A stretch of 63,813 bases of DNA, counting the filler, from Asterionella formosa (lineage: Eukaryota): assembly GCA_002256025.1 (NCBI GenBank). It is 2 parts of 2 records of this genome, joined end to end, with 100 filler letters (N's around TTAATTAATTAA, not from the genome) between each part and the next. Parts side by side here need not be neighbours in the genome. Positions count along the whole stretch, not along the records: positions 1 to 31,872 come from NKIB01000566.1; 1 more part is not named here. One strand, 5' to 3'. Each line of letters begins with the position of its first letter. Within the stretch, counting starts at the first letter, position 1. The translations under genes were made by a program, and so were the position numbers. Of this stretch, positions 1,868 through 63,813 are shown piece after piece. The notes below the pieces were generated by a model. The model was not told the origin of the DNA. It did not search any database and saw only the letters and a list, made by a program, of their open reading frames with translations.

Positions 1868-2626
1868 TCACAATGAGGATAGATGTAGGTCTGTTTACTT
1901 CTTGCATATTAATTTTAGCTTAAAATTAGATTTCTTATTTAACCATTACTTTGTTAGTTTGTCAAGAGTGGCCGCTATTTGAATGCGTTTACTGATTGTT
2001 ACTCTGTTCAACAGTAAGCACAAGGAGCCCTACTTATTAACATTGCTATCGATGATGACAAGCCCGCAAATTGGAACTGGTCAGGAAGACCAACAATTTA
2101 AGTTTCGAGAGAATGTTTTGAATAACAAGCAATTTCATGTGTTGACTTTTTTAGTCGCGGAAATCGGATCATTCCTCGCTAACACGCCAGGGTTGGAAAA
2201 TCTATAATTTTGTAGTCGCGGAAAGTTTTGACCAATTCATCGCTAAAACGAGTAGACTATGGGCATCTTTTGTATGATGTATATTCATTGTGGATACCTT
2301 TCCTTTTATCATTTCTTTTTATCGTGGGTGTTCGACTCCGTTGACGCCCGCCAAGCCGGAGTTCTAAGTTGTGTATCACTATGCAAAGACAAGCCTTGGC
2401 GATACAACGTGCTTTACCTACGGGCGATCGCAAGTTGCAAGCAGGTTCAACAGTGATTCACTTAAATGAAGGAGGCAGCGCGAAAGGAAGGCGAAGCCAA
2501 TAACACTAAGGCAATCCTCATATCACTGTCCACATTTTGTTACTCTCGTCATTAAAATAATACCCCACAAATGAAGGGAAAGCCAACTCTCTGAACTTCC
2601 TTTACTATTCAAAAGGATACTTACCA

Positions 2627-4327
2627 ATGGTGTTCCCTTCAACATTTCAGCTCTTCCAGGACGCTCCTACCCAGGCTGTCAATGACATTAAGAAAGAAGC
2701 ATTAGTATTACGAGGCGATCCTGCGGTCATGCCTTCTCGACCTCAAAATGGCAAAACCAAATCAACAAGGAAAACTAACTCCCAACCATCAAAGGGTGCG
2801 GTACGTCGTAGCAAAAAGGTTGGACCACAGGAAATCAGTCGCGTTCCTTCACAACAAGCCAAGTTAAAGCATCGGGAAGCCACAAAAACAGTCACTAACA
2901 AAAAAACCCGCCAAAACCGCCATCGCCTATTAGGATGTCTTTTTCGACGTAACTCGCGTTCACCGCTCCTCATCAAAGAACGTGAGATTGAAAAGGACAC
3001 ACCGCCGCAAGAAGACTCACCGCCCCCTTTGGAAAATGATATTTTGGCTATGATTGACCCAGTACAACAAGGATTACCCTGCGAGATTGGCGTGAATGAC
3101 TTCTCGACCACTTTGCAGACGTTGGAGATGCACCTAGGCAGTGCTCTGAAGGATGCATCCAATGACATATTCTCTGTTGTTAGTTCTGTGTTAGATAAAG
3201 GAACTGAATGCAGCGAAGTCTTTGCGCTAGTGGACGAGCCGAAAATGCCCCCTACAGGTGCTACTGTCGATGCTACGCCAACAGCAACAGCAGCTCTTGT
3301 CCCAACCTCACCCAAGAGTGAGGTCGAAAAATCACTCAAGCGTGAGGTCCAAATACCACCCAAGAGTGAGGTCGAACAGTCACTCAAGCGTGAGGTCCAA
3401 ATACCACCCAAGAGTGAGGTCGAAAAATCACTCAAGCGTGAGGTCCAAATACCACCCAAGAGTGAGGTCGTAAAGTCGCGCAAGCGTGAGGTTCCAACAT
3501 CCCCGAAACGTGAGGTTCCCATATCACCCAAGCGTGCGGTCCATTTTGGTGAAAACGGTGAAAACCAAGATGAAGAAAGTTACACACAGTCCACCATTGA
3601 GCGTGACGCTTCAAATTGTCCTTCAATTTTCAGCCAGTCGAATACATATTTCAGCCAGTCTACTGCACAAACCATTTTGAAGCCTTCAAGGACGTATGAT
3701 ACAGCGACTGAAAATGACTCAAAAGATTTCGTGTCCAACAATCGTAGAAGTTTTCCGATGTCAATTCTGACATTTCCTTCCGAGGACGACACTTATGAAA
3801 AGAAGAAGAATACGATTTGCTGGTTTGAAGGCGCTAATGGGAAATGCATTTCATATCAAACAAAAGCAGGTGGGTGTGCCATTGACGATACATGGGATGT
3901 TGACCCTTTTGATCATTGCAATGGTATGATATTAGATGATGATGAGGAAAGTATGATAAGTAAGCGGTCAAAGAATTGGTTTTGGGGGAACAAAAAAGTT
4001 GAGCCAATCAAGCCAATGAAGCCAATGAAGCCAATCAAGCCAAGGAAACCAACCCGTACAAAGCCTAATGAGAATTGGCTTCGATGGAATGATGATGAAG
4101 TGCACCAAGTACAGGAAGCAGTTGAAACTATGTTGTTGGTTGACATGTTCTCCCCGGTTGTGAAAAGTGTGGCGATCGGAAATGACATCTACGCAAATGG
4201 TCCTATTTTGTCTGATATAGAGGAAATATCTTATGATGAATCATCAACGATGGATGGGACAAGGTCCTATACTACCACCTCGTATGCTACCAAGTCCTAT
4301 ACCACCAAGTCCTATAGTGTGCTGTGA
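2627..4327 (+). CDS. Hypothetical disordered protein with 16-aa tandem repeats; paralog of 722..1867
   Basis: 566-aa ORF; N-term MVFPS...QDAPTQAVNDIKKE and PCEIGVNDFSTTL match the upstream ORF. Confidence 0.75.
   Translation: MVFPSTFQLFQDAPTQAVNDIKKEALVLRGDPAVMPSRPQNGKTKSTRKTNSQPSKGAVRRSKKVGPQEISRVPSQQAKLKHREATKTVTNKKTRQNRHRLLGCLFRRNSRSPLLIKEREIEKDTPPQEDSPPPLENDILAMIDPVQQGLPCEIGVNDFSTTLQTLEMHLGSALKDASNDIFSVVSSVLDKGTECSEVFALVDEPKMPPTGATVDATPTATAALVPTSPKSEVEKSLKREVQIPPKSEVEQSLKREVQIPPKSEVEKSLKREVQIPPKSEVVKSRKREVPTSPKREVPISPKRAVHFGENGENQDEESYTQSTIERDASNCPSIFSQSNTYFSQSTAQTILKPSRTYDTATENDSKDFVSNNRRSFPMSILTFPSEDDTYEKKKNTICWFEGANGKCISYQTKAGGCAIDDTWDVDPFDHCNGMILDDDEESMISKRSKNWFWGNKKVEPIKPMKPMKPIKPRKPTRTKPNENWLRWNDDEVHQVQEAVETMLLVDMFSPVVKSVAIGNDIYANGPILSDIEEISYDESSTMDGTRSYTTTSYATKSYTTKSYSVL
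3311..3531 (+). repeat. 48-bp coding tandem repeat (PKSEVEKSLKREVQIP) x3 plus degenerate copies
   Basis: Units start at 3311, 3359, 3407, 3455. Confidence 0.95.
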
Positions 4328-27535: not shown

Positions 27536-28447
27536 GATATTGTTGTGTATACCCCACAATAATTGCCCCTATCATATAGATATCTGTCCTAAAATATATT
27601 CTTTGCTACATGTTCCGCTTAATGTTGGGATCTTGCTGGATTTGTGACTACCTATATAGTACGATGGATTCTCCTGAAGATTTGGCGATCGCCATTATTA
27701 CATAAAGCAAAATGCCGAATATACATATATATCTTTTCCCACATACATAGAATAAGTTTAGCTGTTTATTATATACGTGTATGAATAAATTCAATGGTCG
27801 CTAAAGCAAGTACGGTAGTGATACTTTCGGTCCTTCTGAGGTCCGCAAGTAGGAAACGAACGGGAGGCATTCGCGGGAGACTTGTGTTATGCTGATGAAT
27901 GGGCCTTTTGTAACGGTAGAGAGTGTGTCGAGATATCATTATTTATGTAATGCGAAATATAAATACTCTAGCATACCGGTATGCCGGTAAATGATAGGGT
28001 TAGGGAATACAGCCACATCAAGTGTTCATCGTTGTGCAGCAAAACGAAGAATTCCATATAGCCGACAATTACGTACGTATTTTTTCCGAAAGTCTTTTTC
28101 GATCGCGCCAGATCATTGATTCACAATCCCTGCTGGATGAAGAAAGGATTGCACACTTTTGAATAGACGTCACTAAATACTGACGACTGCTCTAGATATT
28201 CATGTCTTCTCACAATTTCGCAGCATCTATTAATTGCGAACATGCATGCCATGCGTCACATCATGACATTGGCAATATAGCATTTTGAAGTGGAAAAATG
28301 TCGGTATAAAGGGAAATGAGCTTGTTGGGAACAAAAACAATTGTTTCCTTAAAGATAGCTGAGTATGACATCCGAGCCAAATCCCTCTAAACGTGAATGC
28401 CGTGGCCACATATCAATCCGAATTTCCTTCACCTACGATGCCAGCCA

Positions 28448-29251
28448 TTATGGTTCCAACGAAGTTGTAGTGGCAGTCAGCAATACATACTCCCTGGTGG
28501 ATGCTCCGAATTTCAATACATCTCCTTTTTTCAATTGATAATATCGTGCAGCATCTATTTGTACACCATTGATAAAAGTTCCATTCGTAGATTCCAAATC
28601 CATTAAATATGGTTGACACTGCAATTTCCCAGTCTCCTTATTGGGCAACGCTCGATATTGTAACACCGCGTGTTGACTTGAACAACTTACATGCAACAGG
28701 GCAACGTCGGCAATCTCAGCATTTCGACCAAACAAATATGCTGATTGTTTTGAAACATGAAGGGTTTCAATTTGTTCGTCTCCTTTAAAGACATATAATC
28801 TCCACAGAGTATTCGGAGCTCTAGCTTCCGGTGGTTCACTGAATTTCAGGACAACTCCCTTGTATGTATTCCCCTTGAGTTCATCCTTTGCCAAGGCCCC
28901 AGAAAGACCAAAATTTGGTTTTTCTGTCGGTGCCACAGCAGTTGTTGTATTGCCGCTGGTGCTGTCGTCTTGGAGTGTCCCTCCTCGATCACCTGGCCTG
29001 GCATAGTAATTATCCTCTGCTACCTGAATACTCTTATTTTTATTGCTGGCCATGGGCTTTCGCTGAGATCTCCGATCATCATCTTGTCGTCCCCGCTTTT
29101 TCAGCTCCTTTTCACGCTCTCTAGATTCTGCAGATTGCAACAAAGCGCAGAGAGCGTCTTGATCAGAGACAGCAGTGAGGGAAGGCGCTGGTGTTGGTGC
29201 GCCGCCCCATCGGCTTCTCTTGCGATTGTTCTGATCCTTTCCATTACTCAT
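28448..29251 (-). CDS. SNIP1: FHA-domain protein SNIP1/Pml1/DAWDLE (RES splicing complex)
   Basis: EKPNFGLSGALA, LKFSEPPEAR.P, WRLYVFK, YLFGR, SCSSQHAVLQYR, PYLMDLESTNGT, FGASTREYVLL. Confidence 0.93.
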   Translation of the reverse strand: MSNGKDQNNRKRSRWGGAPTPAPSLTAVSDQDALCALLQSAESREREKELKKRGRQDDDRRSQRKPMASNKNKSIQVAEDNYYARPGDRGGTLQDDSTSGNTTTAVAPTEKPNFGLSGALAKDELKGNTYKGVVLKFSEPPEARAPNTLWRLYVFKGDEQIETLHVSKQSAYLFGRNAEIADVALLHVSCSSQHAVLQYRALPNKETGKLQCQPYLMDLESTNGTFINGVQIDAARYYQLKKGDVLKFGASTREYVLLTATTTSLEP

Positions 29252-29493
29252 GGCTTGGTACGTTCGTAATATGTCTTAGTATGCAAAGGAGGATCAGCCA
29301 CAATGATGATGGAAGGGATGTCGAATTAAGTGCTGCGGCATCGCTACCTTCTAATTCGTGAGAGCTTGCTTACAAAGTGGTTTCATCACAGCGCGCATCA
29401 TGATTGATTTTTGTGTGGCTGCCCGAGGGAAGAAGTACCGGTACATACGCTGCAGTACAAGGAGCACTTGCTTCCCATGTCAAAGTCGAACAT

Positions 29494-29932
29494 TGCTGAA
29501 GGCAATACACGCCCGAGGTGGTCTCTTGCCTGCGAGTATACATGTGTTCGAGGCTGGGTGGCGCGAGTAGGGTTAGGGTTAGGGTTAGGGTAGAAGGTCA
29601 CCGTACGAGTGCCATCCCAGTCGAGTACACATGTATACGAGAAGGCAAGTAGCCGCCGAGAAGGGTATTGTTGAGGCAATTCCCGCTCTAGCTATCGTCG
29701 CGTCATTCGCTTACCTACTGCCCACAAATTTAGCATAAATGTCAATTTTAGCCTACTATTGCCCATCATATAAAATATATTTTGGATATTTCCTATCTTC
29801 ACCTCGAAAATTGCCAAAGGTCCGATATTGCCCATCATTAAAATATATTTTGTATATTTCATATGTTCGCATTTTGGCAAGACAACAGACACCAATTGCC
29901 CCTCGGTTTTCGGGCGTGTATTGCCTTCAGCA
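29494..29932. mobile_element. 439-bp non-autonomous element with 23-bp perfect terminal inverted repeats and internal telomeric hairpin
   Basis: TGCTGAAGGCAATACACGCCCGA at 29494-29516 and its reverse complement at 29910-29932; internal direct repeat ATTGCCCATCAT(A)TAAAATATATTTTG; no clear TSD. Confidence 0.75.
29568..29592 (+). repeat. Interstitial telomeric tract TAGGG(TTAGGG)3, four G-runs
   Basis: GGG at 29570, 29576, 29582, 29588. Confidence 0.95.
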
Positions 29933-31002
29933 GCCCCTCCTGAAAATAACCTTTCCATTCCCTTGCTACTACATGAGCATGATGTACTAGCCAGCAGTTC
30001 TGTTGTTTCCTGGGTTGTAGTACCAGATGTCATTACAGATATCTTCTTTCTTTTCCATGCATTCTCCATCATGTCACATAAAATTTCTCCCCATGGTATC
30101 TTGAATGCTGCCTACTACTACAGGATAGCTATTCATGAATTAAGAGGGTGTGTTAGTTGAATTGGAAGAAAGTACGAATGAAGAGGCACCACAATCAACC
30201 TACTCCCAGCAGGTATATGATTTCTTGATGCGAGTTCATCTCTCCATCCATCAAGGCGCTATCATCCAAACGAATATTTCTATATACCATTATTGGAAAC
30301 TTGCTAATCCTCTTTGTGGATACATCGTGGATACTGATCCCTCCTCTCAGGTGGGTCAGATCTTTTCGTGAAACTTGTTTAGAGTGGTGACTCCTTTGTG
30401 GTGGTACTACTTATTTTTCTTACTCAGGAGGTGCTGAAGAAGCAAATATTGAGAACGGCTCCTTGGTGGTCAAATTTGGTTTCTCAGGTGTACCAACAGC
30501 ATTCAACAGCAGAACTTCAGGACGATCTTGTGTGTCGGAAAAAAGTCCTGACCATGAAATATACTATATTGTGATTGGTGGTCTTGGATTCCCATCAGCT
30601 GCTTCAAGGTTGTTGCGTGCCTGACAATGTAGTCTCCTCACGCCATCAGCTTGTGATTCTACTAGTTTGCGACCGCACTTGGCTGTTCAAAGTGCAATAA
30701 AGGTTATCACATTCATTACGAGAATTTATTCCATTCCGATTAGCGTATTCATTAGGCAAAGTTGAGCAGTAGCCTTTTGTCGGCACTGCTCTAAATTGGG
30801 TTCCGTTTTCAGCCTCCGCCATGGTCGCTGGCTCACTCATTGTGTTTGATTTTCGACATGCATTTCTTTATGATGAAAACCATTGGCTGTTTAAGATAAA
30901 TAAATATATTATCATGGATTTACTTAACATAGGAATTAACTAGCTAAATAATGACCAATTCTCCAACAATCGTGACATGTGCAAAATGTGGTTACTTTTG
31001 TC

Positions 31003-31103
31003 AAAAGTATGAAACTCGTGGTAAGCATTTTCAGGGACGATCACTCTTGCAGTTACAGGAACAAAGAGGCAAAAGAAACACTTACCACGAATTCTATGCT
31101 TTT
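31003..31103. repeat. Imperfect ~29-bp inverted repeat, probably core of a decayed MITE
   Basis: AAAAGTATGAAACTCGTGGTAAGCATTTTC vs GAAACACTTACCACGAATTCTATGCTTTT. Confidence 0.65.
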
Positions 31104-31872
31104 AAAGAGTTATAATTTTGACTAAATTCCTGTATTCTCAATGGAATCAAAATCGAGATTGAAATAGAGAATTAGCATACGAATTTTTTGAAAAGTGTAA
31201 AACATGTTGTAAGTGCCCCAGTACTAACTTGTTCGAGTTTACAAGGGAAGTGCTCCAGGTGAGTGCATGTAATGGTACTGATAGTCCCCATATCCATTCG
31301 TATATACCTCTGGTGGACCATAGTGGCATTGTGGTATATCTATTGATGAACTCAGCAATCAACAGAAGTGTTGAAGTGGAAAACAGTGAACAAATGTAAT
31401 TTATAAGCACGTTTGTGTGTTTTGTCCCATGTGCAGAGTATGTACTCGTATACTACCAGTAAAGAACTGCTGTGACCCACTGAGTTCTCCTATTCGTTTG
31501 ATTAGTTTGACTAAATCTATTCCATGCCTTGCGAGAATCAAACTTCCAGGTCTTGTTAACCAAAGGAGTCAGCAGGTTGCGGATCAGTCGGTATTCTCAT
31601 TGAAGGTCGAGGTACTGAGAAACAAACCATTTTATGTGGACAAAATTTGCCGGTAATGCATCTAAGCCACGTATTACGTGAAGTGACCATCACATAAATA
31701 AGCCTGGTGGTTGATTTTGAATGCATCACGTGAATTAGTTGAATACATCAAAATACGTAGTTGAATATATCTATATATTATCTGAATACATCACGTTAAA
31801 TATTTGATCAAAGTATCATGCATGCATTCCTGATCATCACTATATTATGTGATCACCTTCACATAATTATTT

Positions 31873-31972
31873 NNNNNNNNNNNNNNNNNNNNNNNNNNNN
31901 NNNNNNNNNNNNNNNNTTAATTAATTAANNNNNNNNNNNNNNNNNNNNNNNNNNNNNNNNNNNNNNNNNNNN
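31873..31972. other. Artificial scaffold gap linker (44 N + TTAATTAATTAA + 44 N)
   Basis: Exactly 100 bp, symmetric, stops in all six frames. Confidence 0.97.
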
Positions 31973-34912
31973 GAATGTTTACTTGGAAGTTGAAATTGAG
32001 GAGGAAGGGGCATTTCCATTGCATTTTCAGGGAGAAAGCCGGTGTGATCTTGGAAATCTGAATATTGCATGATCTCTGAATTCAATCCTTGGAGAGTTTT
32101 TAGTCTCAATTGTTTGTCTTGTTGTGACTGAATATTGTTATAAACTTAATCGTCGCTGTCGTCATGAAATGGATGATTGTGGCCACTTGATTCAAGGAAA
32201 GGACACATAATCTCTTCTTGTTGTCTTCTCTCCCTAAACGCTGCAGCAGTTACACTGCCATTAACTTCTTTCCTTGATTGATTCGATGCGCGCACTACCG
32301 CAATACATAGTTTCATTATGTATTCCAGGAACTCGATGTTCTTGCATGCAATGTCGACAGTGACCATACGCATAGAATACACGGTTGCTACAATTTCGAT
32401 TGTGAGACTCAGATGGGGATTTGTTCTTCCGAAATTTGTAGTTACACAGATAGCACCATTGCCATGTCCGCAAAGACATTGCAAATTTCAAATGATGACA
32501 AAGTCAGGATATGAAAAGGATAGAGTGAAAATGAATTATCAATAATAAATTTAGCATCACTCCGATCATGCTGTGCTGGACAATACAGAGTCGTGAAATT
32601 ATCACTCCACCATAGTAGTAAAAATGGAGGTATACCGCTACATACAGTACAGGCGTCACTAATAGTAGTATAGAGCAACATCAATGTTTTCCTAACATCT
32701 ATGATATGGTTAGTGCATTGTAGAAGTCTCACACTAACTATATTTATTATGTAACTAGTACTAAGCATGCATTGGATTTTATTAGATCCATTCAAAATCA
32801 ACGTCGTCATCAATGTCCCGTTGATTAATGTGTTCATTGTAATCGATATTCTTCTCAGGAACATTTGGTTGAAGTGGTTCAACATATTGATGCATATCCT
32901 CTTCACTTACATTGGGAAATGAGAAGTATGAGTGTGGGTAGATGATATTTGTGGTGGGAGTAGCAATTCCACTAGGATTCCTTCCATATTCAGATCGATT
33001 ATTTTGTGAAAGTCCAGTATAGATTTCCTAATTACAATCAAATAATCTCATTGTGTGATGATAATGTTCTTATTATCATTATACTTCAAGGTCGGTAAAA
33101 TATTAATATTAATCATCATAGTTATAGGATACCTTGATCATAATTTTGATCCAAAAATTATCATGTATACGAAAATCCTGTGCCACTTAGCGTACGATAC
33201 CCTTGATCCTATATGCATGATACTTTTTATTGGCAGAGGTAATTTGGTGTTAGCTGACAGATTATGTAAACAATCAAAAATTCTACTTGAGTCAAGCTTT
33301 GTTTGACAAAGTACTGTCAGAACAAAGAATTATAATTCACATGCAAAGAGAAATAAATTCAATTTGGATACAGTGAGCTTTCAATCAAAAACAAACAGTT
33401 GGGTCAGGTTTGTTTCAACTCTTTCTAAAGGTGCATACATACTGTTTGTTGTACAGGATAATCTATCATTATTTTTATGAAAATTAGAGATGATTCATAT
33501 GGAAAGCAAAAATCGATTTGGGTATACTGAGAGTTGAACGAATTGGGTCTGCGTCGACTAGATTGAAAACCGCTTTGTTGTGTTGGATAATCAAGGGTCA
33601 TATCATGAAAGCTAAAGATTCAAATTGAGAGTGATACTCGGCTTGGGTCTGCTGAGAGTTCAGCTGAATGAAACAATCCAATTTTTGTCGAATTATTTAA
33701 ACTGTGAATATGTTGTGTTGAGCACAATTAAAGACTTGCCTGCAAATAGTGGAGAACGAATGGGCTATAATACATTCAATCCTTTAGATCCTTTAGTGTA
33801 ATTTCATTCCCTGTCATGACGAAGTTTATAAAAAAAGTCATGAATTTGAAACAGAGATATGGTGTTGGTCTACTGACAGTCAGTTCAAGTCGAGAAATAT
33901 GATTCAATTTGAGTTGCAGCCACTTGTTAAAACAAAAATCAACATAACTGGTATTGAGTTATTGAATCTATAATCATACAAAGGATATAAAAACATGTAG
34001 AGAGTGAAAATTTATTTTATTTTGCTGACAGATTCATTAAAATCAAATTCTAATTGAGTGGAATTTTGCCCTACTAAGAGGGAAGGTTGGAGAAGCTGTC
34101 AAACATAAAACATGTTTCTCCTGAGTATAGCCAATTTCTGTGGGTATGATGGAGGGAAGAGAAAGATCTGTGACAAAAGGATATAAAAAATTCTTTACTA
34201 CTTAACTTGCTTAGCTTGTGCATTTCAACCTGCATCAACTATTCAATGACTTCCTGCCAGGCTTACCAAGCGCACTAAGCCAAGAGGATCATGATTAATG
34301 TGGGCAGCCATCAAGTCTTGCAGCAATGAAATGATGGAACAATGATGCCATGGTGTGTAAGTAACTGTGTTGATCGTGATGCATGTATCAAAATTCTTTC
34401 GAACACACTCGCTTACCTACTTGCCCCTTATTGCCCCGAAATAAAAATTACTTAACAAATTACTTAGAGTTTAAAAATTACTTAGAAGTACCCGAGTGGC
34501 AAGACGATAGCTGGAGCGGGAATTGCTAAATAAATGTCGACTCCACGTGAAAGTTTGAAGCTCGTCATCATTTACAACCCCTATATACTGGCATATTCTT
34601 GTCATCAGGACTACGTCCATCAATCTCAAGACTGCACGCGATTATTGTTCCATAGATCATCGAGGAAGGCGCATCATCACCTTTTGCTTACCAAAACTTC
34701 TTGATCGCATTGTGTAATTAGAAAGATGATTTATGAAAGAGAAGGTTGAACCATGTGAGGTGAAACATTTGTTGTTCCAAGATGTTCGCGGAGGCCTTAG
34801 CAAGTCCTTTTTTGTGAAGACGACGAACGTTGCAAATAATCACAACGTCTCACAATTCCCACTTGAGTCGAGTTCGATAATCTGACTTCTTTCTGTCATT
34901 CATCATTTTAAC

Positions 34913-39879: not shown

Positions 39880-42800
39880 AAATGAGGTTACAGAGGGGGG
39901 GTATGCGATTGAGGGACTCCACAGAGCCATGAAAGCGGTGTAGATATCTGTGTGTGAGAGTGGAGCTTTCGATATATTGGTGGTCCAGATTGAGGCTTGG
40001 TCAAGACGATAAGTATATTCTTGGAGAAAGGAGCCATCTGGGGCGACACGAACGCCAAGTGAGCATTTGCCAATGGAACATTCAATTCTTGGGATAGAAA
40101 AACTGGAAAGAGAGCGGCTGACATAAAGAGATTGATTTCGGGGGAGTGGAAATTGGCATGAAGGGTGGGCTTACCGATGTTATCCCAAGACCATTCTATC
40201 AGATAAAAGAAAAAAATTTGAAGCGCAAGAGCTCTGTCACTAGCAAACAGAAGGCTTTCCCAGTGTTGGGCGACCTTTTGCATGGATGAAACAAGGGCAG
40301 GGCTGCTAGAGAGGGTCTTGGATGTGATCCAAAGATCCGTATCGTCTACAAATGCCTCCCCTGGGCGGTTGGAGTGGCGGAAAGAGCAAGGACAATGGGC
40401 GGGAAAGCCATTAGTGAGGGTGGAAAGAGCTTGGAGGAGCACATTGCTCACGCACATTCATATACAGGGGTCAGCGCCACTGCCCTGCAGAACTCCCAAA
40501 ATGAGAAGAGTGCTGGTGGTGGTGAAATGGGCTGATGAGACACCATAAGCTGTCTGAACAAAAGAATTCATAGCAAAAATGATGGCAAGCATGCAGGTGG
40601 CAGCTGAAGAGGGCATTCCAACACGTTCTGTGGCCATGAGACTGAGAGAGGGAATAATTCGGTTGTAGCAAGCTTTGGTATCATTGTTAAATGTAGTGGC
40701 GCAAGAGTGGCGGAGGCAAATGTAGCTAGTCATAGGAGATAATCTTGAGGAGAATAGCGCATAGGCAGCTGGCACAAGGAAGATTGCCAAAGTTCCATCG
40801 AGTCAGAGCAAGCGCTGTGATGGAGAGCATGATAAACTAGGCGTCTACCCCATAGAAGGCAGAATGCTAAATTCATGTTGGGCTCAAGTAGTTGAATTAC
40901 TTGGAGGCGGGTGATGAGAGGATTGCCACTGTCTTTCTCAAGCATGACCTGGATGGCGGTAAGCCAATGAGTGGGGGCAAAACCAAATCGAGATGGGAGA
41001 GTAATCGTGAAGGCAAGAAGAGTCGATATGGAGTCATCCCTGGCTAGAACCTTGTAGTGGGTTAAATGACAACCGGATGGGCTGGAGGCAGTATTTTCGG
41101 AAGTGTTTTGAAATTCGGATTGGAAATCCTCCATTGTGATAGTTATATCAATTGGGTCTATGCCCTGGAGGGAGGCTTGGACAGACATAGTTTGAGAAAA
41201 AGGCTGACTTCCAAGATGGGATCTATTGATGTTGTGTCAAAGGTGCTGCCACAGAGAATGAAGTCCGTGAGATGGTTTCGAGAGAATGGAGGGAGAAGAG
41301 TACTAAGAAGGTGGCCACTTGCACCAGGAGATGAAGCGGCTTGACTGAAATGTTGGATATTTTGGGCTATAATTGCATCAAATAGTAGGAGGGCAGGGTT
41401 GGAGAGGGAGGTGGTCTGGCCAGTGGGAAAACCACCTTGAAAGAGGGTAATTTCAACCTGTTGAAGAGTGGAGTGGTGATATCCTTTGTCATGCTGCCTT
41501 AGTTTTTGGAAGGTGCGTCTGACCTCTTCGGCTTTTCTAATGTTGTTTAGAGCGATTTCGGCAGTGGAATCAGAGTGCCTGGAGGCATGTTCGGCCTTCT
41601 CTTCAAGATGGGCAGCTCGGAGAACATCTGCTTTGACTTGACACTCATCGAGGGCAAGCAAGACAGGTGGAGCGTAAGGCATTGAGAGAGTATTGGGGGT
41701 TGTGGCGGTTGAGAAGGATAGTAGTAGGTATGTTGGGATGGGGATGGGAGGATGGCTTATTGAGACTCCTTGCAAGGGCACCATCGCCAAAGTTCTGGCA
41801 ATCGAAGTGATGTTTCTTCCAGAATAGATAATTTTGACCATGGAGCATGAGGGCGGGTGACCAGGGATAGACATAGGACGAGGCATGAGCAGAGCGTTTT
41901 TCCGCATGGAGAAGGGCAGCAGTGATATCTCGGTCTATCAATTCATATAGAGTTGGATGACTGTGCGGGGAGCATTGGTGGTGCTGAGATGGGCAAGATA
42001 TGTGTAGCAGGAGAAGACCTGGTGAGCAAATGTTGAGGTAGTGGTGGAAAAAGGAAAGATATCATTGGCACTGCTCCTCTGGGTTGCGTAGTCGAAGGAG
42101 TCATTGGCTGGGGTCAGTTGGGGGGTCAGTGGAGCTATCCTGGAAGAGCATGTGTTCATCAAGGTCGACATAAATAGCATGGTGGTCGTCGCTGAATGGG
42201 CTTTGTTCATAGCTCAGAATACCACCTTTGCAAACTGCACATAGAAAGAGTGTAGTTCCAAAAATAAAATCGATGCGGCGACCTTTGAAAGAAGTGGAAG
42301 CTGAAGGGGGAAGGGAGGTGTGCAAATCTGTGAGGGAGCATTTCCTCATAAAGGACTGTATGTCAGGATCAGTGTGGAGAGAATTTGCGTCCCACATGAG
42401 GATGATTTCTTAATTGTTGGACTTGCCAGGAGGTAATGGTGGTAGTGGAATCAGAGCAAGGAGGAGTGGAGGAGACATTGCGGTGTTTGGGTTCAGAGAG
42501 GGTGCATTGGTCGCTGTGGCTGGCGCCAGAGTTGCGATTGGACTTGGAGCAGGTGAGGGGAGGGAGTGCTGGAGAGTCGGAGTCTCCATATGGGGTGTAC
42601 TGTAGCAGAATGGAGAGAGTGTTTGTGGAGTGGAAGGGAAGATCATCTAGAGTTTGATGTGATTGATGATGATCTAAGGCATGCCAGACACTAGCTGATG
42701 AAATTGTAGGGAATTGTGTCTTTAAGATGGGGTACAGAGTTACGATGAAGAACTCAAGGTAATTTACATTGGCAAAGTGAGTGCAGAGGTAAAGAGCTGA

Positions 42801-44200
42801 GGGATCAGAGGCATCAGTTTCAATGCTGCAAAACAAATATTTCGTCCCTGGAGATGGTTCTGAAAAACTGAGTAGGGCGCTTCCAAGAGTTTTGTGGGAG
42901 TCGGGAAAAAGATGGGTGAGTGGCAGGAGACTGGTGACTTTAATGGCCTCTTAGTTGTTGTTCTTGAATCTTGGAGGCATAGGTTTGGTCGGAGAGTCCC
43001 AAAATTTTTGGAGACAGAAAGATCATGTACCTTGGAAGGGATACTGAGAGGAGAATTTAGTTTGTTCCTTTGGGGAGAGAACGTCTTGAAGCATGCGGCT
43101 GGCACAAGATTGATAGGGAGGAGATGTGCAGATAACAATCGCATGGGCTTTTAGTATGGTGGGGTAACTGCTGGGGCCATCTACTTGGCACCACAGACAG
43201 AAAAAGGGGAGAGGAATGCTTAAGTGAGAGTGGGCTAGTGTAGAAAGTTGTTGCTGGAGGGAGATGCGGTTCATTTTATGATAAGAAAATAAGAGCCAAC
43301 CACACTCAACCGGAAGGTCACCATGGAATTGATCAATTCTTATGAGCCATTGATTGTGCGCCAATGAAAGGGAAGGAATTAGAGTTAGTATGGGTTGGCA
43401 TGTGTTGAGATGGATTCTTCCTTTGACAGATCGTTCATCGAGAGTTCTTCCCCCATGGAGAAGAGAGGTAAAACTGTTGAGCCCTATGAAATGTTGTACT
43501 AGGGAAGTTACAGAGGTGGGGAATGAAGAATCGGAGGCAAGAACTTTGTTGGGTTTACCCGAGACAGAGTTGAGAGTGGCATAATGGTGATAAAAGAATA
43601 GCGCTGTGAAGAGAGATCGGACTGTGTCCGCTTTCTCAGAGGAAGAGTAATTCGTTGGGACTGGTATGATTGGTATGATGTGGGACAGTGGGACTCGGAA
43701 GAAGAGCCAGATGGAGTGAAAGGCTCCTGATGGTGGAGCAGGGAATGGTGGTTCGGGAAGCTCAGCAACGTGAGTAGTGGACGTGTCGTCTGAAGATTCA
43801 GCAGAGGTTCCCATCTTGGGGGGTGCCAGAGAGAGGTAGGAGGAATCGATAGCATCGGTATTGGGTGTGCGCTTTTTGGTCGCTTTTTGTGGGAGGATGC
43901 CACTGAACAGTTGACAGAGGCGGTAGTCGGGAGAGTTGGGGCTGCAGCAGGAGAGGCAGGGATAGGAGAATGGCGCTTGAAGTAAGCACCAATAGAGGGT
44001 TGTGCCAAAAGTTGATTCTGTTTCAATGGGAAGAGCTGAGTTTGAGGCGAGTTGTTGGATTTCTGTTTGGCGAGGGCGAGCTGTTGGAGGGAGGAAGGGA
44101 GTGGGGAAGGGCGGAAACAGCGGCGCCCAAAGTGGGCATGGTGAACAGCGGCGTGAGCAGAAAAAGGCGTGTAGCAGCGTCCGTAGACCCAATACTAGAC
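39880..44200 (-). mobile_element. Decayed non-LTR retrotransposon (Ambal-like): ORF1, APE endonuclease, reverse transcriptase
   Basis: APE: WDANS, RRIDFIFG, SDDHHAIYVD; RT: SSPSG.H..HYK, MLEK..G, NDTKACYNRI, GVLQGSG, AFVDDTD; many frameshifts. Confidence 0.9.
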
Positions 44201-50865: not shown

Positions 50866-52374
50866 CTCCCTCTGGCTGAAAACAATTGCAGCAACTTTTA
50901 AAATTTCTCCGGTGCAATTTTGATTAAGATTCTCTCCAGCTCAATTGCCCTAATGTGCGCAATCACTTAAGGTTCCTGCATTTCAACCCAAGTTTAGAGG
51001 TAGGGTTAAAAAATAATATTGAGTCAGAGTACTCAAACACACACTTCTTACGAGTAAAACATAAATGTGTATCGCTAAACGGAGCTTTCACCAACATCAC
51101 CCTTTCCATATGCTTAGATACAGTCATTGACAAAAGTAGGGGAACAGGTCAATGCTATATATTGTCAGGATATAGGATCTGGCGAGAAACTACAGAAAGG
51201 AACTTCGGTTTTTAAACTATGCTATAAAGACCAGAAATTTCAGGGGAAATCACTTTATTTGACATAGTAAGAAAACCGAAATTCCTTTCTGCAGTTTCTT
51301 GCCAAAAGTTATATACTGATTCTATTTGAAGGTTACCTATGTATCTAAATCGGCTTCAGACCCAGCCAACGTTGAGCTATTGTTGTCCAAATATTTGCCG
51401 AGCCACCGGGTTGTATATAAGAAAAATAATCGTCGGTACATATACAATTCAGTGATGCACAATGTTTATATATATAGTTAGCTATTTCAAAAAGGAATCT
51501 ATGTACGTACGCGCAAATTTCCACTGATTTGAATATATCAAACGGAATCATGTCATTCAAAAATAGCTCCTTATAAATTCTTAGTTCCAGGGAATTTCGG
51601 CAACGCTAAGCAATATTTTAATTTTTGCATTAGAGTTGAAATGCAGGAACCTTAAGCCACAGATCCATGTAATATATATAATTAGTAAATTTAAAATTGG
51701 CAACTACATATCAAAAAAGCATTTTTGGGCTTTTTCGAGTTTCACTTACGGCTAATCTCAAGTAAAATGCAGATGTATGAGGACCCATTTTTCTTCGAAC
51801 CATCTATTCTCAACATACTTACAAAGTAGGATATAACAGTAGAATAACAGCAACTCGCGTTCAAGCAATTATGGAACGCGCAACCCCGAAAGTTGCAACG
51901 GTGGGAAGGAAGACAATGACGGTATGGTCGTTTTGAGGAAATCACCATTAAATATCCGGCGGTGTGGTCAATGTAAGTGCAACAACTGTAGAAAGCATAC
52001 GAGATGACAGTTACTCTTTTCATGTTATAATTATGATAGTGGCTTGTTCTATTTGGCTTCCTGCTGGTTTCCAGTAAATATTTGAGTGGCCGACCAACAT
52101 AAAACAGCATTTGCTTGGCAATATGCTAATATATGTAATTGATATATATATATATGTTAAATTGGTTTTGAATAATTTATTTAAATGCTATTGATTCAAT
52201 TACAGAAACAGAAGGTATGTTCATGTCTATGTAACTAATAACGAATGCATTTTCTCGAGTAAGCCGATCCCCACGTAGAAAGATGTTATGTTGGCTACGT
52301 AATCCTTCACATGCAAACAGTGAAGACACTAGTGGTGCCAGCGATTCGACGCAATTATTTTCAACCAAAGGGAG
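50866..52374. mobile_element. Stowaway-like (Tc1/mariner) MITE copy 2 with nested TTAA element
   Basis: TA|CTCCCTCTGGCTGAAAACAATTGC ... GCAATTATTTTCAACCAAAGGGAG|TA. Confidence 0.85.
50971..51651. mobile_element. 681-bp MITE with TTAA TSD and GG..CC termini (Kolobok-like)
   Basis: TTAA|GGTTCCTGCATTTCAAC ... GTTGAAATGCAGGAACC|TTAA perfect 17-bp TIR; internal inverted repeat 51185-51299; absent from copy 1 near 38810. Confidence 0.85.
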
Positions 52375-54360
52375 TACCAGGTACCTGCAAGTTGTGGTCA
52401 GTTGTTTGCCAAAAACAGAACGTGGCGCCTGCAAGCACTCAAGTTCGACTCCCCGGTAATATTACCTCAACATGTAGAAAATTTTAAGGGTTTTGTGCTG
52501 GCCAATTAATTTCATTATTATCAAAATCTAATTTTGAAGAATGATTTTCTGAAAAAACCAGTTTCCGAACATTGCTACGATGGGGGGCGGGGATTGGGTT
52601 TTTTTCCCAATCACAATTCTGGGTGTCAAGATTCCTTTTTCCAAAAATCTCCTAGTTTATATCACATGGAGCAGTCCTTGTGACGAATGGAAATTTTGCT
52701 TCGGTATGTCGTCTGTGGGAACATGATGTAGATCAATGTTATTTTCTTCACTTTTCTCTATAGTCGAATTTTTTTAATTTTTCACGACCCCCCTCCTTTG
52801 ATCGCGGAACCGCCAAAGTTGGTGGTACCGTCATGGTGACTTGTGTGCCGGTTTGTTGCAACAAGTTGATAGGTCCATCATGGTTGCTCTTGCTAATGAT
52901 AACAAACAATACAGCCATTTTTAGTTATGTACGACAACTTTTGCGATGCTATTGCCCTGGCATCCGAATCCTGTCTGTAACGACAAGTAATCCATGTGAT
53001 GCAATTCACTACCATTTTGAATGAACAGAAGTGCAAACAGCTGTGATACATACCGGTATGCATGCATCATACATAGGAGGATGACGGAGTACATACATGC
53101 ATCCCTGTATACATACTGGTATCAACTACCAATTCATACTACCATACCCTGGTACCATGACTGTTTACGGAACTTATAGTACAATTGACTTTATGTCAGT
53201 ATTTGTTTTTAGCTATGTGTTCTCCAAGCAAATATGTTCTTGGAACATGATGTTTGCCAGTATGGTACCTGGTACCGGTAGTAGTGGCAACATCATGAAA
53301 ATGATCACGAATTAAAAACCAATTGTTCTTTTCAGCTACTGATGTTGTAGTAAATGTCGCTCTAGTACTTGGTGTTAGACGATTATCTACGAACTGCTCG
53401 TGTTTCGATCTGGCAAGAAATCATGGCGGAGATAATGTCATTGTGGTCGAGCGCCATATTGCTTCCGCCGATTTTCTATTTCAGCTATTTCGCAATGAAT
53501 ATCAAAGCTACGTGTTCGTTTCTTTCACTACTTGTCAGCGACACGTGTTTTCTATCTAAGCAACTAATTGCTAGCTGCAAGGGTGGCAAGGGCAGCATAA
53601 CAACCCACAAACGCAAGGAGTCTTGGCTGAAGTTGAAGTTGTCCATTGATGATGACAATTGACATGATGGATGCTTTTTACAATGACATTTTTGAATCAC
53701 TTTATAGCTGCTGCTGTATATCACAGAATAGCTAACATTTGACAGTTCTTGGGAGCAAAAACCCAGCCAATATCCAATTAAAAAGCAGGAAATTACTGCA
53801 ACAACCATGCTGATGCATTCATGGATTATCAAAGATTCATGAAAAAAGGTGCCCTAAGGTTTTTAGCTAATTCATGACAAAAAGGCGCAGTAAGGGAGCC
53901 AACACACAATTGCGCTGAAACGACTTAGGCCATAACATGTTTTACCAGAAATTGTATCAGAATTTTAATCAGCCCTGCAAGAATTACCCATTTGGAATCT
54001 TGTCTAGCTCGGTTGGCAGACTTGAAACTATCTAAAAGGTTTCAATCATTTAATGCAAGCAAGTCAGTCTCTGATACAAGCACCTATCTATCTGCCGGCA
54101 AAATGTTGGGAGTTTCAGAAACATGCTGAAACTGACATTTCGAAAAAGACTGTGACTTGCATAATTTGAAAATACATGTATGTGCCAATATTTTGTTTCA
54201 TATAAGGTATATATTTATTCAGGAGTGCATACCAGGTAAACGCGTCATATATTCTATCCACTATTGCAGTGTGGACGAGTCATTTCTTCCTCTATGTAAT
54301 TCAGGCACAACCACCCTGGTGATCAAATCCAAACCATTCCTTCATTTATTTAGTAAGTTC

Positions 54361-57300
54361 ATGACCAACAGAATCAACGATTCGACCATGGGATCAAACG
54401 AGGCAGGCAAGGTTCGCCGAAGCAGAAAGGTGCAGTCACGAAGCCGTGATCACCTATCGATGCTTGATGTGGAGGACCCACCGCATCCACCAAAGCGTTC
54501 TTCAGTTGCCTCACACGGATCAAATGGTTCCCAAGCTACCCACAAGACTGGTACTGTATCCCAAGCGTCGTCTGAAACTGTTGTTGCCTCAATGCTTACG
54601 AAAATGAACCTGCCATCCCAACGTAAGAAGTCGCGTAACTCTAGGCCAGAACCAAAGTGTTCGTCAAAATGCACATACCTGTTGTTGGCAGCGATGTGCA
54701 TCTTTGTGGCGTTTTACGGGGGAAATACCTATTTGAACACCATGGTGATCAACGATGAATTCGATACAGTCGCAAGCAGCTCTCAAAATAAAAATTCAGA
54801 CGTTGAAAGGCACCAAGAGAAATCAAAGAAAGACGACGAACCCGATGGTGATTCACTGGAGGGAAAGATCGGCGAGAGCGCAGATGTCGCGGGGACGAAG
54901 GCTAAGCCAAAAGCAAAGGATGAGGTTACTGATTCCCTCTGGGACGGTCTCTTAGCTACTACCTTAGTAACCGAAGGAGACAATTCCACAAACAAGAAGG
55001 AAGATGAGTATCCTGAGCAATATGACGACAGCCAAACGCCTTCCGAGTCAAAGCGCGTTGTGCCGGGGGGCGAAATAATCACCTCAAATCTGACTGAATC
55101 AACCGGAAAGAAAGGATACAAAGAGGATTCGAATTACGAGGTAACGGAGAGTGCTATGAACGTCACCGAAAAAGGTGCAGGTCGTACGATGATATCTGGC
55201 GACCAAGCTGAAGTCGAAAATACCAAGCCAGCAAAGGAAGACGACAGCGATGAGTTATCTCACGACGACCGGCGATACGGAGACAATAAGATTATGTCTC
55301 AGGAAAGAAGTGGAAATATGATTCTGAGCAACGATAAACAAGTGATGACTTTAAGGGACGATGAAGACCCACAGTTAATTGTGCACGAAGGCATGAACCC
55401 AAAACCAAGAACGAATGAGAAGCAAAAAAGTGCAAGCGTCGCGCAAGACGTTACCTACCAGGTGAATTCCGGGATAAATCTTTCACAAGAAAATTCCGAC
55501 GCTCAAGCTTTGAATCAAAACCAAAAGTTGCAGGAGACAACAATGGAGGAGCGAGACAATCGTGAAGGTCAAATGAGAAATCCAGACAGTAGAGGGGACA
55601 TGAAGCAGACAGGATTTGGAGATGGCCAAATGAGAATTGAAGCTTACCAAGGAATGGAGAAACAGGAAAGAACCAGTGATGGTAGAAACAAGAATTTGGA
55701 GGATCAAGGCATGATACAGGAGCAAGGTGATGGTGCTGGACAATTGAGAATCTCCGAAATTCGAGGTGAACTGACCGATAGAGGTTTTGGCGACATGCAA
55801 ATGCGAAATGAAGATGGCAAAGGAATGATTTTGTCGAAAAGAAACGAGGACGATCAAAACAGGAATGGAGAGGGTGAAGGTATGATACAGGAGCATCGCG
55901 ACAGTAATGCTCAAGCCAGAAGTGCAGGCAGTCAAGCAGGAATTCGAATGAGTAACGGGAAAAGCATGATGGAACAGACCGAAGACAATACAAATTCAAC
56001 TTGGAATGGAAAGGTTCAAGGCACGAAGCAGGAGCAAGGATACGGTGATGGTCAAATGAGAGATCCAAATGATCCAGGGAGACAAGAGCAAGCAGGATTC
56101 GTCACAGATAAAAATCGAAATGAAGTCGATCAAGGCATTGTACAGCTGAAAGCAAGCGATAACGGTCAAGAGAGGAGTCAACATGGCCAAAGAACAATAG
56201 TTCATGAGCGAAGGGACGGTGATGGTCAAATGCGACACCCAGGTAGTCAAGGGGCACTGCTACAGCAAGGATTAGGCGACGGTCGAATGCGCACAGACGA
56301 TAGTCAAGCCATGACACAAGGGGAAGGCGGTACGGGACAAACGAAAACGCAAGCGAGCCAGGAATTGGCAATGCAGCGAAGAGATAGAGGTGGCGATGTT
56401 CAATTGAATGATCAAAATGTTGGAGGGAGTGTGCAGGACCAAGGATTTGGTGATAGTCAAATTAGAACGAGCGACAATCAAGATATATGGCGAGAGACAC
56501 GAGTAAATGATGGTCAAATGAAGAGTCTAGAGGGCAAAGGGATGGTGCAGGAAGAAGGAAATACTTTTGGTGAGCTGGAGATTCCAGGTAGTCATGGATT
56601 AGGCGATAGCCGAATTCAAGTTGAGGATGGCGATATCACGATGCAGCAAAAAGCAGGCGGTAACGATCCATACATGAATCGAGATCGTCAAACAACGATC
56701 CTGGAGAATGAAGACTTTGTCGACCAAAAACTTGATCAAGACAGTCAAGTCATGATGCAGAGAAGCACGTTCAAAAATGCTCGAAATGAGATGATTAATG
56801 AGGTTGGCGACACTGAGAGTGCTAGTCCAGGAGACAAATCGAAGCAGTTACTGAGTCAAGGTGATCAAGATAAAGGGATGGAGGATGAACGCGTTCCACA
56901 AGGCTCCAACAAGCTGAACGATATTGAAATAGAAGCTGTGGATATGAAGCACCCAGGAGATCAGATGATGCGACAACATGAGGGACAAGGTCTCATAATT
57001 ACGCAAAGTAGCAAGAAACAAGGAGGAAACGTTACGGCGAGTGGCCAACGACAAGACATGGTCTATCAAGACAGAAATGATGTGATGAACAGCAATAATG
57101 AAAAGGATGAATACACCTCCGGTATCTCAAATGAAATGATGAACCAGAACGGCATGCAGCAACACGATGGTTCGATGATTGGATTCGTTCCTCAAAGTGG
57201 CGAATCCACACAGAGCGACATCATCTCACAAGTTGATGAAGTCGTGATACAGGAAAAGAATTTGTTTGATGATGAGGAAGAGGGTCACCGTGGAATTCAA

Positions 57301-62215: not shown

Positions 62216-63813
62216 TCCTCCCCATTACCACGCTCAAGAGGCTGGAACATCGTTCCACTCTGAACTGGTTCTGACAATCTCATGTGAATCTTCACGTTCT
62301 TAGCTAGTCATCATGTCCGCAAAATTATCTTCCGACCTTATAAAAATTACCTCCAATTCTTCATCCTCAATCATGTCCTTTACATGATGATACTTAATAT
62401 CAATATGTTTTGTCCTGGTTCCGATTTGCTGATTCTTCGCGATAAAAATAGCTCCTGTGTTGTCTTCTTGTAGGATACTTGGTAACATGACCTTACCACC
62501 AGTAACCTCATTCAGTAGCATTGCTATGAACTTGATCTCTTGTCCACACTGGGACATCCCCACATACTCGGCTTCCACGCTGGACAGCGTAACTGTTTGT
62601 TGTCCTTTCGACTGCCAACTGATAAGTGCCCCGCCAATAGTAACAAGATAGCCAGTCATGCTCTTCCTGTTAACCTTATTAGCAGCCCAGTCACTGTCCA
62701 CGTAGGCAATGACTCTTAACTCTTTTGGCTTATGCAATTTGAGAACTGTATCCTCCATATTGGATAGGTAACCAATGAATCGCGCCACTGCATGCCATTG
62801 TTCTTCACCTGCTGGGCAGCTCAAATGAGCCGATAATTCCCAAACCGCATTCGCACAGTCTGGCGAATCCTTCTTTGTAGACCATAATAACTTGCCCTCA
62901 ATTTTTCGATATTCTCCTTCCATAATGACTTCACCGTCATTCTTGTTCAATGTCTTTCCTGGTACGCCCGGCATTGCTTACGACTTAATTTTCATACCGG
63001 TCAACTTCTCGTATTCGTGTAGAAGTTGCATACGAAATTTCTGCATCTGCACCTCCCAGTATTCACCATACTTGTCCTCTTTCCAAGCATATTCCACTCC
63101 TAGGTGTTTCTGTAGAATACCCTGCTTGGTAATATTGAAATCTTCCTTGATAACATTTTTCATATACTCCACTGCACTTGGAGTCCCACATACAATACCG
63201 TCATCCACGTAATTAACAAGTAGACCATCAATTTGTCCATCCTTGTTCCGGTGCATAAATAACATAGGGTCGATCTTGCTCTTCGTCATACCTGGTTTAT
63301 TGGTGACACATTTCGCAAACGTCCTGGACCAGCATCGTGGAGCTTGTACTATCCCGTACATAGCCTTCACAAGCTTGCAAACATGTGTATCGGAATCGAC
63401 TCCGATCAAACCTTGAGGGGGCTCAATATAAATGTCCTCATCGACGTCAGCATTTAGAAATGCTGCTTCCACATCAATAGCCTCCGCTCGCCAACCGTTG
63501 TACATCGTCACTGCGAGTACCGTTTTGATTGTCGCATCGCTTGCAACTGGAGCAAATGTCTCAGTAAAATCGACACCTGGAATTTGCTCATATCCCTTCA
63601 CGACCAATCTTGCCTTGTAAATGGTCTTCCCGGTTAACACATCTTCTTTAATTCGAAACACCCATCTCGTTTTTAGTGTTCGCTTCTTAACAGTATCACG
63701 TTTGACAACTTTCCACACTCCTCTCGACTGGAAGTTTTCATATTCTTTGTTGATCGCCTTGATCCACTCTTTCTTGTCTGGTCTTGCCATTGCTTCATCG
63801 TAGCTTGTTGGTA
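62216..63813 (-). mobile_element. Ty1/copia (CoDi-like) pol: RT and RNase H, inactivated, runs off the window
   Basis: YKARLVVKGY, DVEAAFLN, KAMYG, YVDD, YVDSDWA, SSVEAEY, EDNTGA, TKHIDIKYH; stop at 62978 and 4-bp insertion near 62301. Confidence 0.95.

Follow-up and report, generated by a model that had tools for sequence, protein, structure and literature searches.

The window analysed here is a 63,813-nucleotide (nt) stretch of DNA, filler included, from the diatom Asterionella formosa (assembly GCA_002256025.1), in which two parts are joined and positions 1–31,872 derive from NKIB01000566.1. Within this first part, in an intergenic position, lies a 439-bp repeat element (29494–29932) whose left portion forms a long hairpin on the + strand, punctuated by four mirror-placed pairs of the word CGAG and closed by a loop of TTAGGG repeats. 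The element is located upstream of a − strand FHA-domain gene (28448–29275; Pfam FHA, E 2e-16), which is adjoined by a PP2C phosphatase gene. An RNA contig of sequencing run X17 spans the FHA gene and stops at 29403, ~ 90 bp short of the element. Among named organisms, pennate diatoms provide the closest matches to the PP2C protein: Fragilaria crotonensis leads with 60% identity, followed by Nitzschia, Pseudo-nitzschia, Seminavis, and Epithemia. A look-up of this protein in the ESM Atlas indicated no more than a eukaryotic origin. The hairpin is best explained as the left-end palindrome of a very high-copy repeat, with the CGAG sites as inherited design and the telomeric loop as a repair scar, a reading to which we assign a probability of roughly 0.7.

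The features of the element are given below; X numbers denote public sequencing runs, and L numbers denote other loci of the same repeat family.

29494–29932 (+): 439-bp repeat copy, consisting of the family's left 418 nt and a 21–23-nt inverted copy of its own left terminus
29494–29516 (+): left terminus and left arm of the 23-bp inverted repeat; true family boundary
29503–29569 (+): left arm of the hairpin, from pairing and folding
29604–29670 (+): right arm of the hairpin, from pairing and folding
29514–29517 and 29657–29660 (+): CGAG site 1, left and right (paired-coordinate sum 59174)
29533–29536 and 29638–29641 (+): CGAG site 2, left and right (paired-coordinate sum 59174)
29549–29552 and 29622–29625 (+): CGAG site 3, left and right (paired-coordinate sum 59174)
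29564–29567 and 29606–29609 (+): CGAG site 4, left and right (paired-coordinate sum 59173)
29572–29591 (+): 20-nt telomeric repeat GTTAGGGTTAGGGTTAGGGT, standing where the family hairpin has a 32-nt tip
29603 (+): variant site; the G of the window copy occurs in at most 3% of X1 depth, C in 97% and also in L001 and L007
29676–29699 (+): GCAATTCCCGCTCTAGCTATCGTC, inverted counterpart to the terminal stretch of another module (34505–34528); in L001 this segment lengthens the palindrome outward by ~ 31 nt
29757–29868 (+): internal direct repeat (29757–29800 and 29826–29868, spacing 68–69 nt), with TATTGCCCATCAT in each copy
29758–29925 (+): five ATTGCC hexamers (29758, 29810, 29827, 29895, 29920), from the hexamer count
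29910–29932 (−): inverted copy of the left terminus, at which most family members continue differently

The inverted ends of the element are perfect over 23 bp, with TGCTGAAGGCAATACACGCCCGA at 29494–29516 and its exact reverse complement at 29910–29932. These are the only two matches to this sequence in the whole window at up to three mismatches, the chance expectation being 0. The inverse hexamer GGCAAT is found in the element only at 29501 and 29675, so that GGCAAT/ATTGCC occurs seven times in 439 nt, in strict mirror orientation, compared to ~ 0.4 expected in either orientation. Because of this excess, the hexamers are subterminal repeats in mirror orientation. The sequence facts on which the initial annotation was built, namely the 439-bp unit with its perfect 23-bp terminal inverted repeats, the mirrored CGAG sites, and the loop with four GGG runs, are all confirmed.

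Public sequencing data offer a view of the abundance of the repeat. Element words (31-mers) are present in 20 of the 24 listed public runs, which belong to 16 studies and comprise freshwater, river, estuary, and algal samples; six of these runs are RNA libraries. Four runs were mapped onto positions 28300–31200. In X1, 24,282 contigs fall on the element, and the summed depth reaches 0.86–3.2 million per bin, compared to ~ 970 on both flanks. This excess (~ 1000–3000 times the flanks) does not equal copy number and is readable only as very many copies. Loose ends at 29492–29494 are displayed by 99 X1 contigs (38 + 25 + 36) with a consensus agreement of 0.35–0.41. Such low agreement indicates many different flanks and hence a true terminus. 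At the same left boundary, an unrelated flank begins in eight of ten sequenced copies.

When JGI/ENA metagenome contigs were searched for 20 nt of the terminus, nine loci with the same left end were obtained, all of them real relatives and seven bordered on the left by unrelated DNA. Two matches on genome contigs (L010 and L011) were rejected as chance 20-mers inside bacterial coding genes, without further similarity, and viral contigs contained 0 matches to the terminus and 0 to the telomeric junction. The RNA libraries harbor the repeat as contigs without strand, partly inside host transcripts; one RNA contig of 2,315 nt carries only 63 nt of the element. L006, from a marine metagenome, and X15, an estuary RNA run with a loose end at 29494, share the same insertion site with left flanks one letter apart, indicating that at least this copy is present in several samples and in RNA. 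The element is therefore a mobile repeat of a freshwater pennate diatom, non-coding, dispersed, and present in a very high number of copies. Among the papers listed for diatom MITEs (miniature transposable elements with inverted repeats) and for tandem G·A hairpins in transposons, no title or opening of an abstract describes this family; the matches on the latter topic mostly concerned sheared DNA.

The CGAG word is distributed unevenly in the window. Counted over its whole length, there are 175 CGAG vs 133 CTCG, and the hairpin, with eight CGAG, is the sole 200-nt stretch with at least five. No CTCG cluster is found in the window, and the hairpin itself is free of CTCG. In L001, the hairpin + strand displays 10 CGAG and 0 CTCG, arranged as five mirror-placed pairs with start-to-start distances of 15–20 nt. 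Across the loci, CGAG is intact at 31 of 34 sites, a count that leaves aside the outermost left site, which fell inside the locus search pattern. The three losses are all CpG transitions (TGAG twice, CAAG once). Transitions of the same kind are seen in the right arm of site 1, at 29657 in 2% and at 29658 in 16% of X1 depth. Three sites carry a longer word, CGAGAAGG, which is similar to the terminus TGAAGGCAAT. Conversion of a complementary CTCG into CGAG needs two transversions, and for this to have happened five times at mirror-placed positions cannot be decay. The pattern of CGAG sites is genuine and constitutes a conserved trait of a repeat family dispersed in multiple copies. The initial annotation had argued from a single copy that four identical mismatches could not be random decay of an inverted repeat, and had proposed a search for further copies; both the argument and the expectation of conserved CGAG positions among dispersed loci hold, with fuller copies even containing a fifth site. 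An asymmetric four-base word kept in one direction on both arms of a palindrome is a design needing explanation.

Pairing of the two arms brings CGAG opposite CGAG. Tandem sheared G·A pairs are stable in a 5′-Y-GA-R-3′ (pyrimidine-GA-purine) context, and the CGAG sites fit this context, from which a sheared conformation is predicted. The sites of the element differ from this chemistry in their surroundings. At three of the four window sites the flanking pair on one side is mismatched as well (C·A, G·A, T·T), the fourth being a G·T wobble; in L001, a neighboring pair is mismatched at four of the five sites, and the remaining one is again a G·T wobble. Hence, the four mirrored sites stand as first described, while each of them forms a looser internal loop than had been drawn. 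G·T pairs do not clearly outnumber A·C mismatches (4 vs 3 in the window hairpin, 5 vs 2 in L001), so the strand asymmetry of the hairpin rests on the G·A sites.

The calculated folding energies of the two strands illustrate this asymmetry. For the window hairpin, DNA folding gives −38.4 kcal/mol on the + strand (z −5.4) and −29.2 kcal/mol on the − strand (z −3.9). A 261-nt stretch of L001 folds as DNA with −76.1 kcal/mol on the + strand (z −10.0) and −67.0 kcal/mol on the − strand, and the 200-nt hairpin of L001 folds as RNA with −112.3 kcal/mol (z −11.2) and −84.0 kcal/mol (z −6.0), respectively. The CGAG sites thus lead to very unequal folding of the two strands, with the G-rich strand folding better as DNA and as RNA, in agreement with the strand preference first put forward. 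One base pair of the stem, formed by 29526 and 29648, is changed in both partners. L009 carries both changes (T-A to A-T); in X1, T to A at 29526 is found in 23% and A to T at 29648 in 10% of depth. DNA repair can likewise alter the two arms of a palindrome in concert, without selection for the fold. The hairpin matches no Rfam 15 family at E ≤ 1, either within 28000–31500 of the window or in L001 and L007. The only matches in the searched loci, to the C/D-box families sR14 (23.9 bits vs a threshold of 38) and sR44 (21.3 vs 45), stay below threshold and were rejected as chance; both lie over the L009 flank and the left terminus of the element.

The loop of the window hairpin displays a different history. 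Its GGG runs start at 29570, 29576, 29582, and 29588 in a TTAGGG repeat, and one more GGG precedes the loop closely, at 29556–29558. No other occurrence of TTAGGGTTAGGG is found in the window, so that the loop holds its only TTAGGG repeat. GGG(TTAGGG)3 is a known quadruplex sequence, and with four G3 runs separated by TTA spacers the loop is predicted, from sequence alone, to fold into an intramolecular G-quadruplex. In L001 and L007, the tip of the hairpin reads GCGCGAGTAGG-TTGACCGTACGAGTGGCGCCCCCGGCGCTGCG-AGAAGGTCACC; in the window copy it reads GCGCGAGTAGG-GTTAGGGTTAGGGTTAGGGT-AGAAGGTCACC. The left junction is marked by TAGG at 29568–29571, which is common to the window copy and the family sequence. 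L005 reaches the tip on the left arm only and there matches the left part of the L001/L007 tip. The telomeric repeat is absent from all three of these other tip-reaching copies. Furthermore, in L001 and L007 the palindrome goes on through the 32-nt family tip, which adds a fifth CGAG/CGAG site, a stem rich in GC, and a loop of CCC. Since the family tip extends both the symmetry and the CGAG punctuation, the long tip appears to be ancestral and the telomeric 20 nt a replacement. Sampling of element words points in a similar direction: 12 other DNA runs plateau at 0.71–0.74 of the sampled words vs 0.95 in X1, which would fit with about a quarter of the words, those over the loop junctions and the right-end junction, being low-copy. 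The window's G at 29603, five bases from the junction, is likewise rare in X1. The telomeric loop is hence best read as a repair scar of the window copy or of a small lineage and not as family design. The earlier proposal of a designed telomere mimic with a G-quadruplex loop does not survive this comparison, as the loop is missing from the other copies and takes the place of 32 nt of a longer stem.

X1 contains at least nine different joints, each at approximately single-copy depth, that skip 79–159 nt of the hairpin centre, several of them with 2–23 nt of filler, and L003, L004, and L009 have lost the centre between direct repeats CGAGTAYACATGT. The palindrome centre is fragile in this genome. 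The read depth at 29603 is about one-tenth of that at 29526 and 29648, and as this position lies 5 nt from a masked stretch, it was not relied on for retention of the centre.

We propose that the palindrome tip of the window copy broke and 32 nt were lost, upon which ~ 20 nt of host-type TTAGGG repeat would have been laid in, most likely by telomerase priming on a 3′ TAGG at the break, and the patched end would then have been connected with the opposite arm. The telomeric repeat begins precisely at TAGG, a 3′ end that is able to pair with a TTAGGG-type telomerase template. With its break, loss, filler, and rejoining, the window copy also fits into the series of centre-deletion joints. Regarding the filler, synthesis by telomerase is somewhat favored, at slightly better than even odds; capture or templated copying of telomeric DNA is a less probable source, with perhaps half that weight, and other origins, including an ancestral or selected loop, account for the rest. 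For diatoms in general, telomeres are reported to consist of TTAGGG (PMC3622300, PMC12044402). In vertebrate genomes, telomeric repeats are reported to become inserted when double-strand breaks are repaired (PMC2246262, PMC7215372, PMC8537989).

Several observations weigh against the combination of inherited CGAG sites and a telomeric scar. Positions 29560–29598 are masked in the X1 read mapping, and copies with the telomeric loop are therefore not countable there. A contig from RNA (X15 record 11) runs across the centre and is 12 letters longer there, a surplus compatible with the family tip (32 vs 20 nt) and with two more TTAGGG units alike. The ancestral state of the tip would follow from three paralogous copies instead of orthologous loci without the loop, and one study is reported to have detected no telomerase activity in a diatom extract. 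For the CGAG sites, the covariation is thin: only 1 of 74 pairs is changed on both sides among six sequences, and 87 of 500 shuffles equal it, which is not significant. The counts of G·T and A·C carry no strand signal of their own. CpG decay of the outermost CGAG (16%) is similar to that at a neighboring CpG (19% of X1 depth), indicating that inserted copies are under no visible constraint, as would be expected if only source copies are under selection. On the side of mobility, a second copy with the right end of the window copy was not found, and the right-hand repeat is present in 0 of 9 other loci. The window copy is not flanked by a target-site duplication (AACAT | GCCCC), and 22 open reading frames (ORFs) of at least 170 aa in the window gave no match to a DNA-transposase family in Pfam.

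Three roles may be considered for the CGAG sites, and the data do not separate them: a single-strand scaffold in DNA or RNA, like-oriented protein sites in the duplex, or a historical feature of a master copy. We infer that the sites are an inherited family design that stabilizes the G-rich strand as a hairpin, whichever of single-stranded DNA, RNA, or duplex is the form that counts. The first of these, which is the initial annotation's view apart from the telomere mimic, takes the evenly spaced G·A hairpin as a selected single-strand recognition scaffold for the enzyme mobilizing the family, with a single-stranded DNA or RNA intermediate. In its favor, the five identical mirror-placed sites are kept across copies and the strands differ strongly in folding energy. 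The base pair changed on both sides in L009 and in 10–23% of X1 depth, the lack of a target-site duplication, the unlike ends of longer copies, which resemble those of single-strand movers, and the presence of the repeat in RNA libraries point the same way. However, the family has no link to an HUH/Rep protein, a reverse transcriptase, or any other enzyme, its left end lacks the TC of a canonical Helitron, and DNA repair can also bring about the co-change of the arms. The RNA evidence is without strand and in part stems from host transcripts that simply extend into a copy, and many copies have lost the centre yet remain numerous. We therefore regard this scaffold as unlikely, and slightly more doubtful still is the stronger form in which the repeat multiplies via the folded G-rich strand, as single-stranded DNA or RNA, and would represent a hairpin-guided class of mobile elements in diatoms for which no eukaryotic counterpart has been described.

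Alternatively, CGAG could be part of like-oriented protein-binding sites in the duplex, similar to the subterminal repeats of cut-and-paste transposons, laid over a palindrome, in which case the G·A pairs would be a by-product. All 10 CGAG of L001 point one way at their regular spacing, three sites share the word resembling the terminus, and the seven GGCAAT/ATTGCC hexamers in mirror orientation are typical of transposase binding sites; the window copy also has a 23-bp inverted end. Yet four invariant bases are short for a protein site, duplex binding does not require exact mirror placement, and neither a transposase nor a target-site duplication was found; we consider this explanation as improbable as the scaffold in its general form. 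Least probable is that the telomeric loop is ancestral or selected, as a G-quadruplex cap or telomere mimic, with the long tip of L001 and L007 derived. The loop does have exactly four G3 runs, and the masked stretch in X1 prevents a count of telomeric copies. However, none of the three other tip-reaching copies has the repeat, the palindrome and the CGAG pattern both carry on into the long tip, as would not be the case for a secondary insertion, the window allele at 29603 is rare, and about a quarter of the element words are missing in the 12 other runs. A scar in one copy of a palindrome with inherited CGAG sites accommodates these observations best.

The right end of the element sets the window copy apart from its relatives. 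After 29911, 131 X1 contigs as well as L001, L004, and L007 continue with CAGCCCTGGGATTGCC... over more than 600 nt, and the junction between family sequence and inverted terminus at 29911/29912 shares only the bases TC. On these grounds, the 439-bp form is probably a deletion or rearrangement product. The perfect inverted ends reported at first are thus present in this copy, while a 439-bp unit bounded by them is not the usual form of the family. The flanks of the window copy (...GTCGAACAT on the left, GCCCCTCCTG... on the right) have not even a 2-bp direct repeat in common at the ends or close to them, and shifted boundaries and palindromic 2–4-nt sites likewise revealed no target-site duplication. 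The 439-bp unit contains no ORF with a family match, and the only mobile-element protein in the window is a Copia-type reverse transcriptase at its end. Long copies encoding an enzyme had been suggested as a test; the longer relatives L001, L007, and L008 contain no long ORF over a stretch exceeding 600 nt.

Fuller copies have palindromes of ~ 190–250 nt. In L001, a module ending in ...GATAGCTGGAGCGGGAATTGC directly precedes the left terminus, and the palindrome is extended outward by ~ 31 nt. A separate fragment of a related module lies at 34422–34530 (+) of the window, ends in ...GATAGCTGGAGCGGGAATTGC, and is 89% identical to L001 329–437. In L008, an inverted right part of the element follows the left hairpin arm, as if the hairpin were flipped or centred in a much larger palindrome; because assembly across a palindrome may have produced this arrangement artificially, it was not used as evidence.

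Assignment to a known class was attempted by comparison with several systems. The element resembles MITEs and other non-autonomous inverted-repeat transposons in being 439 bp long, non-coding, high-copy, and dispersed next to genes, with a sharp left boundary and, in the window copy, a 23-bp inverted end and mirror-oriented subterminal hexamers. It differs from them in having neither a target-site duplication nor an autonomous partner, and most of its relatives possess a different, longer right side; the inverted ends of the window copy may be the one-off product of a deletion or rearrangement. Foldback (FB-type) elements are characterized by long palindromes with modular arms that vary in length, by frequent loss of the centre, and by copies that have been rearranged. 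The long palindrome of the present element, its variable modular arms (such as the additional ~ 31 nt of L001), its centre deletions, and the rearrangement in L008 are all reminiscent of this type. Unlike FB-type arms, those of the element lack tandem subrepeats and are punctuated by an asymmetric 4-nt word in one orientation, for which we know of no precedent among FB elements.

IS200/IS605 TnpA and Helitrons move by hairpin-dependent single-strand transposition. With these systems the element shares a strand-specific imperfect hairpin near one end, the lack of a target-site duplication, unlike ends in long copies, and a head-to-tail junction, in which the L001 module end directly meets the left terminus. 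It differs in the absence of an HUH enzyme and of a TC left end and in a hairpin ten times longer, which leaves these systems as a functional analogy of candidate status only. Helitrons typically begin with 5′-TC, end with 3′-CTRR behind a short 3′ hairpin, and insert between A and T. The left end of the element reads TGCTG and the module end at 34528 reads ...AATTGC, and the base preceding the element is T in six of ten copies, without a fixed site; a canonical Helitron was therefore rejected. The element is filed as a non-autonomous foldback/MITE-like repeat, representing a new family without assignment to a superfamily.

The telomeric loop finds its closest counterpart in the short interstitial telomeric sequences inserted at double-strand-break repair (PMC2246262, PMC7215372, PMC8537989). 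There, as here, one copy carries a few exact telomeric hexamers that its relatives lack, and they occupy a deletion junction that starts at a short telomere match, in this case TAGG. The element thus displays the hallmark of break-repair interstitial sequences, 20 nt of TTAGGG repeat for 32 nt with TAGG microhomology, as judged from paralogous counterparts. The published cases differ in being vertebrate, whereas the present one concerns a diatom and the tip of a transposon palindrome, with paralogous copies only for comparison.

Diatom repeats are poorly catalogued, and unclassified repeats rank among the largest contributors to the repeat content in a report on a freshwater-diatom genome (PMC12044402). 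The present family apparently has very many copies per genome, which are found beside genes and inside transcripts. Its window copy would provide a natural non-vertebrate example of telomeric repeats filling a break, placed at the tip of a palindrome, and the patch would connect the origin of interstitial telomeric sequences with the fragility of palindromes. The CGAG punctuation is testable with oligonucleotides and stranded RNA data.

The remaining part of the window contains further repeats and coding sequences. A second repeat of 691 bp (50966–51656) is bounded by inverted ends that are perfect over 22 bp (CTTAAGGTTCCTGCATTTCAAC), is flanked by TTAA at either end, and contains a palindrome of 57 nt. 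With its flanking TTAA it displays the classical MITE form that the hairpin element lacks, and its sequence suggests a MITE of the TTAA-targeting kind (piggyBac- or Kolobok-like). In L009, the flank matches this repeat at 87–94%. At the window end, an ORF running off the sequence (62981–63811, −) encodes a Copia-type reverse transcriptase (RVT_2, E 2.8e-45) and represents a fragment of a long terminal repeat retrotransposon. Strong GC skew (+0.31 to +0.42) extends over 40001–44000, across several − strand ORFs of 189–424 aa without Pfam match, and a 1530-aa ORF at 54136–58728 (+), likewise without Pfam match, is accompanied by an AT skew of ~ 0.25. Two runs of 44 N (31873–31916 and 31929–31972), which are assembly gaps, lie inside an apparent palindrome at 31855–31990. 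Finally, a 24/48/96-nt tandem repeat at 3302–3543 is contained in a 588-aa ORF (2561–4327) without Pfam match.

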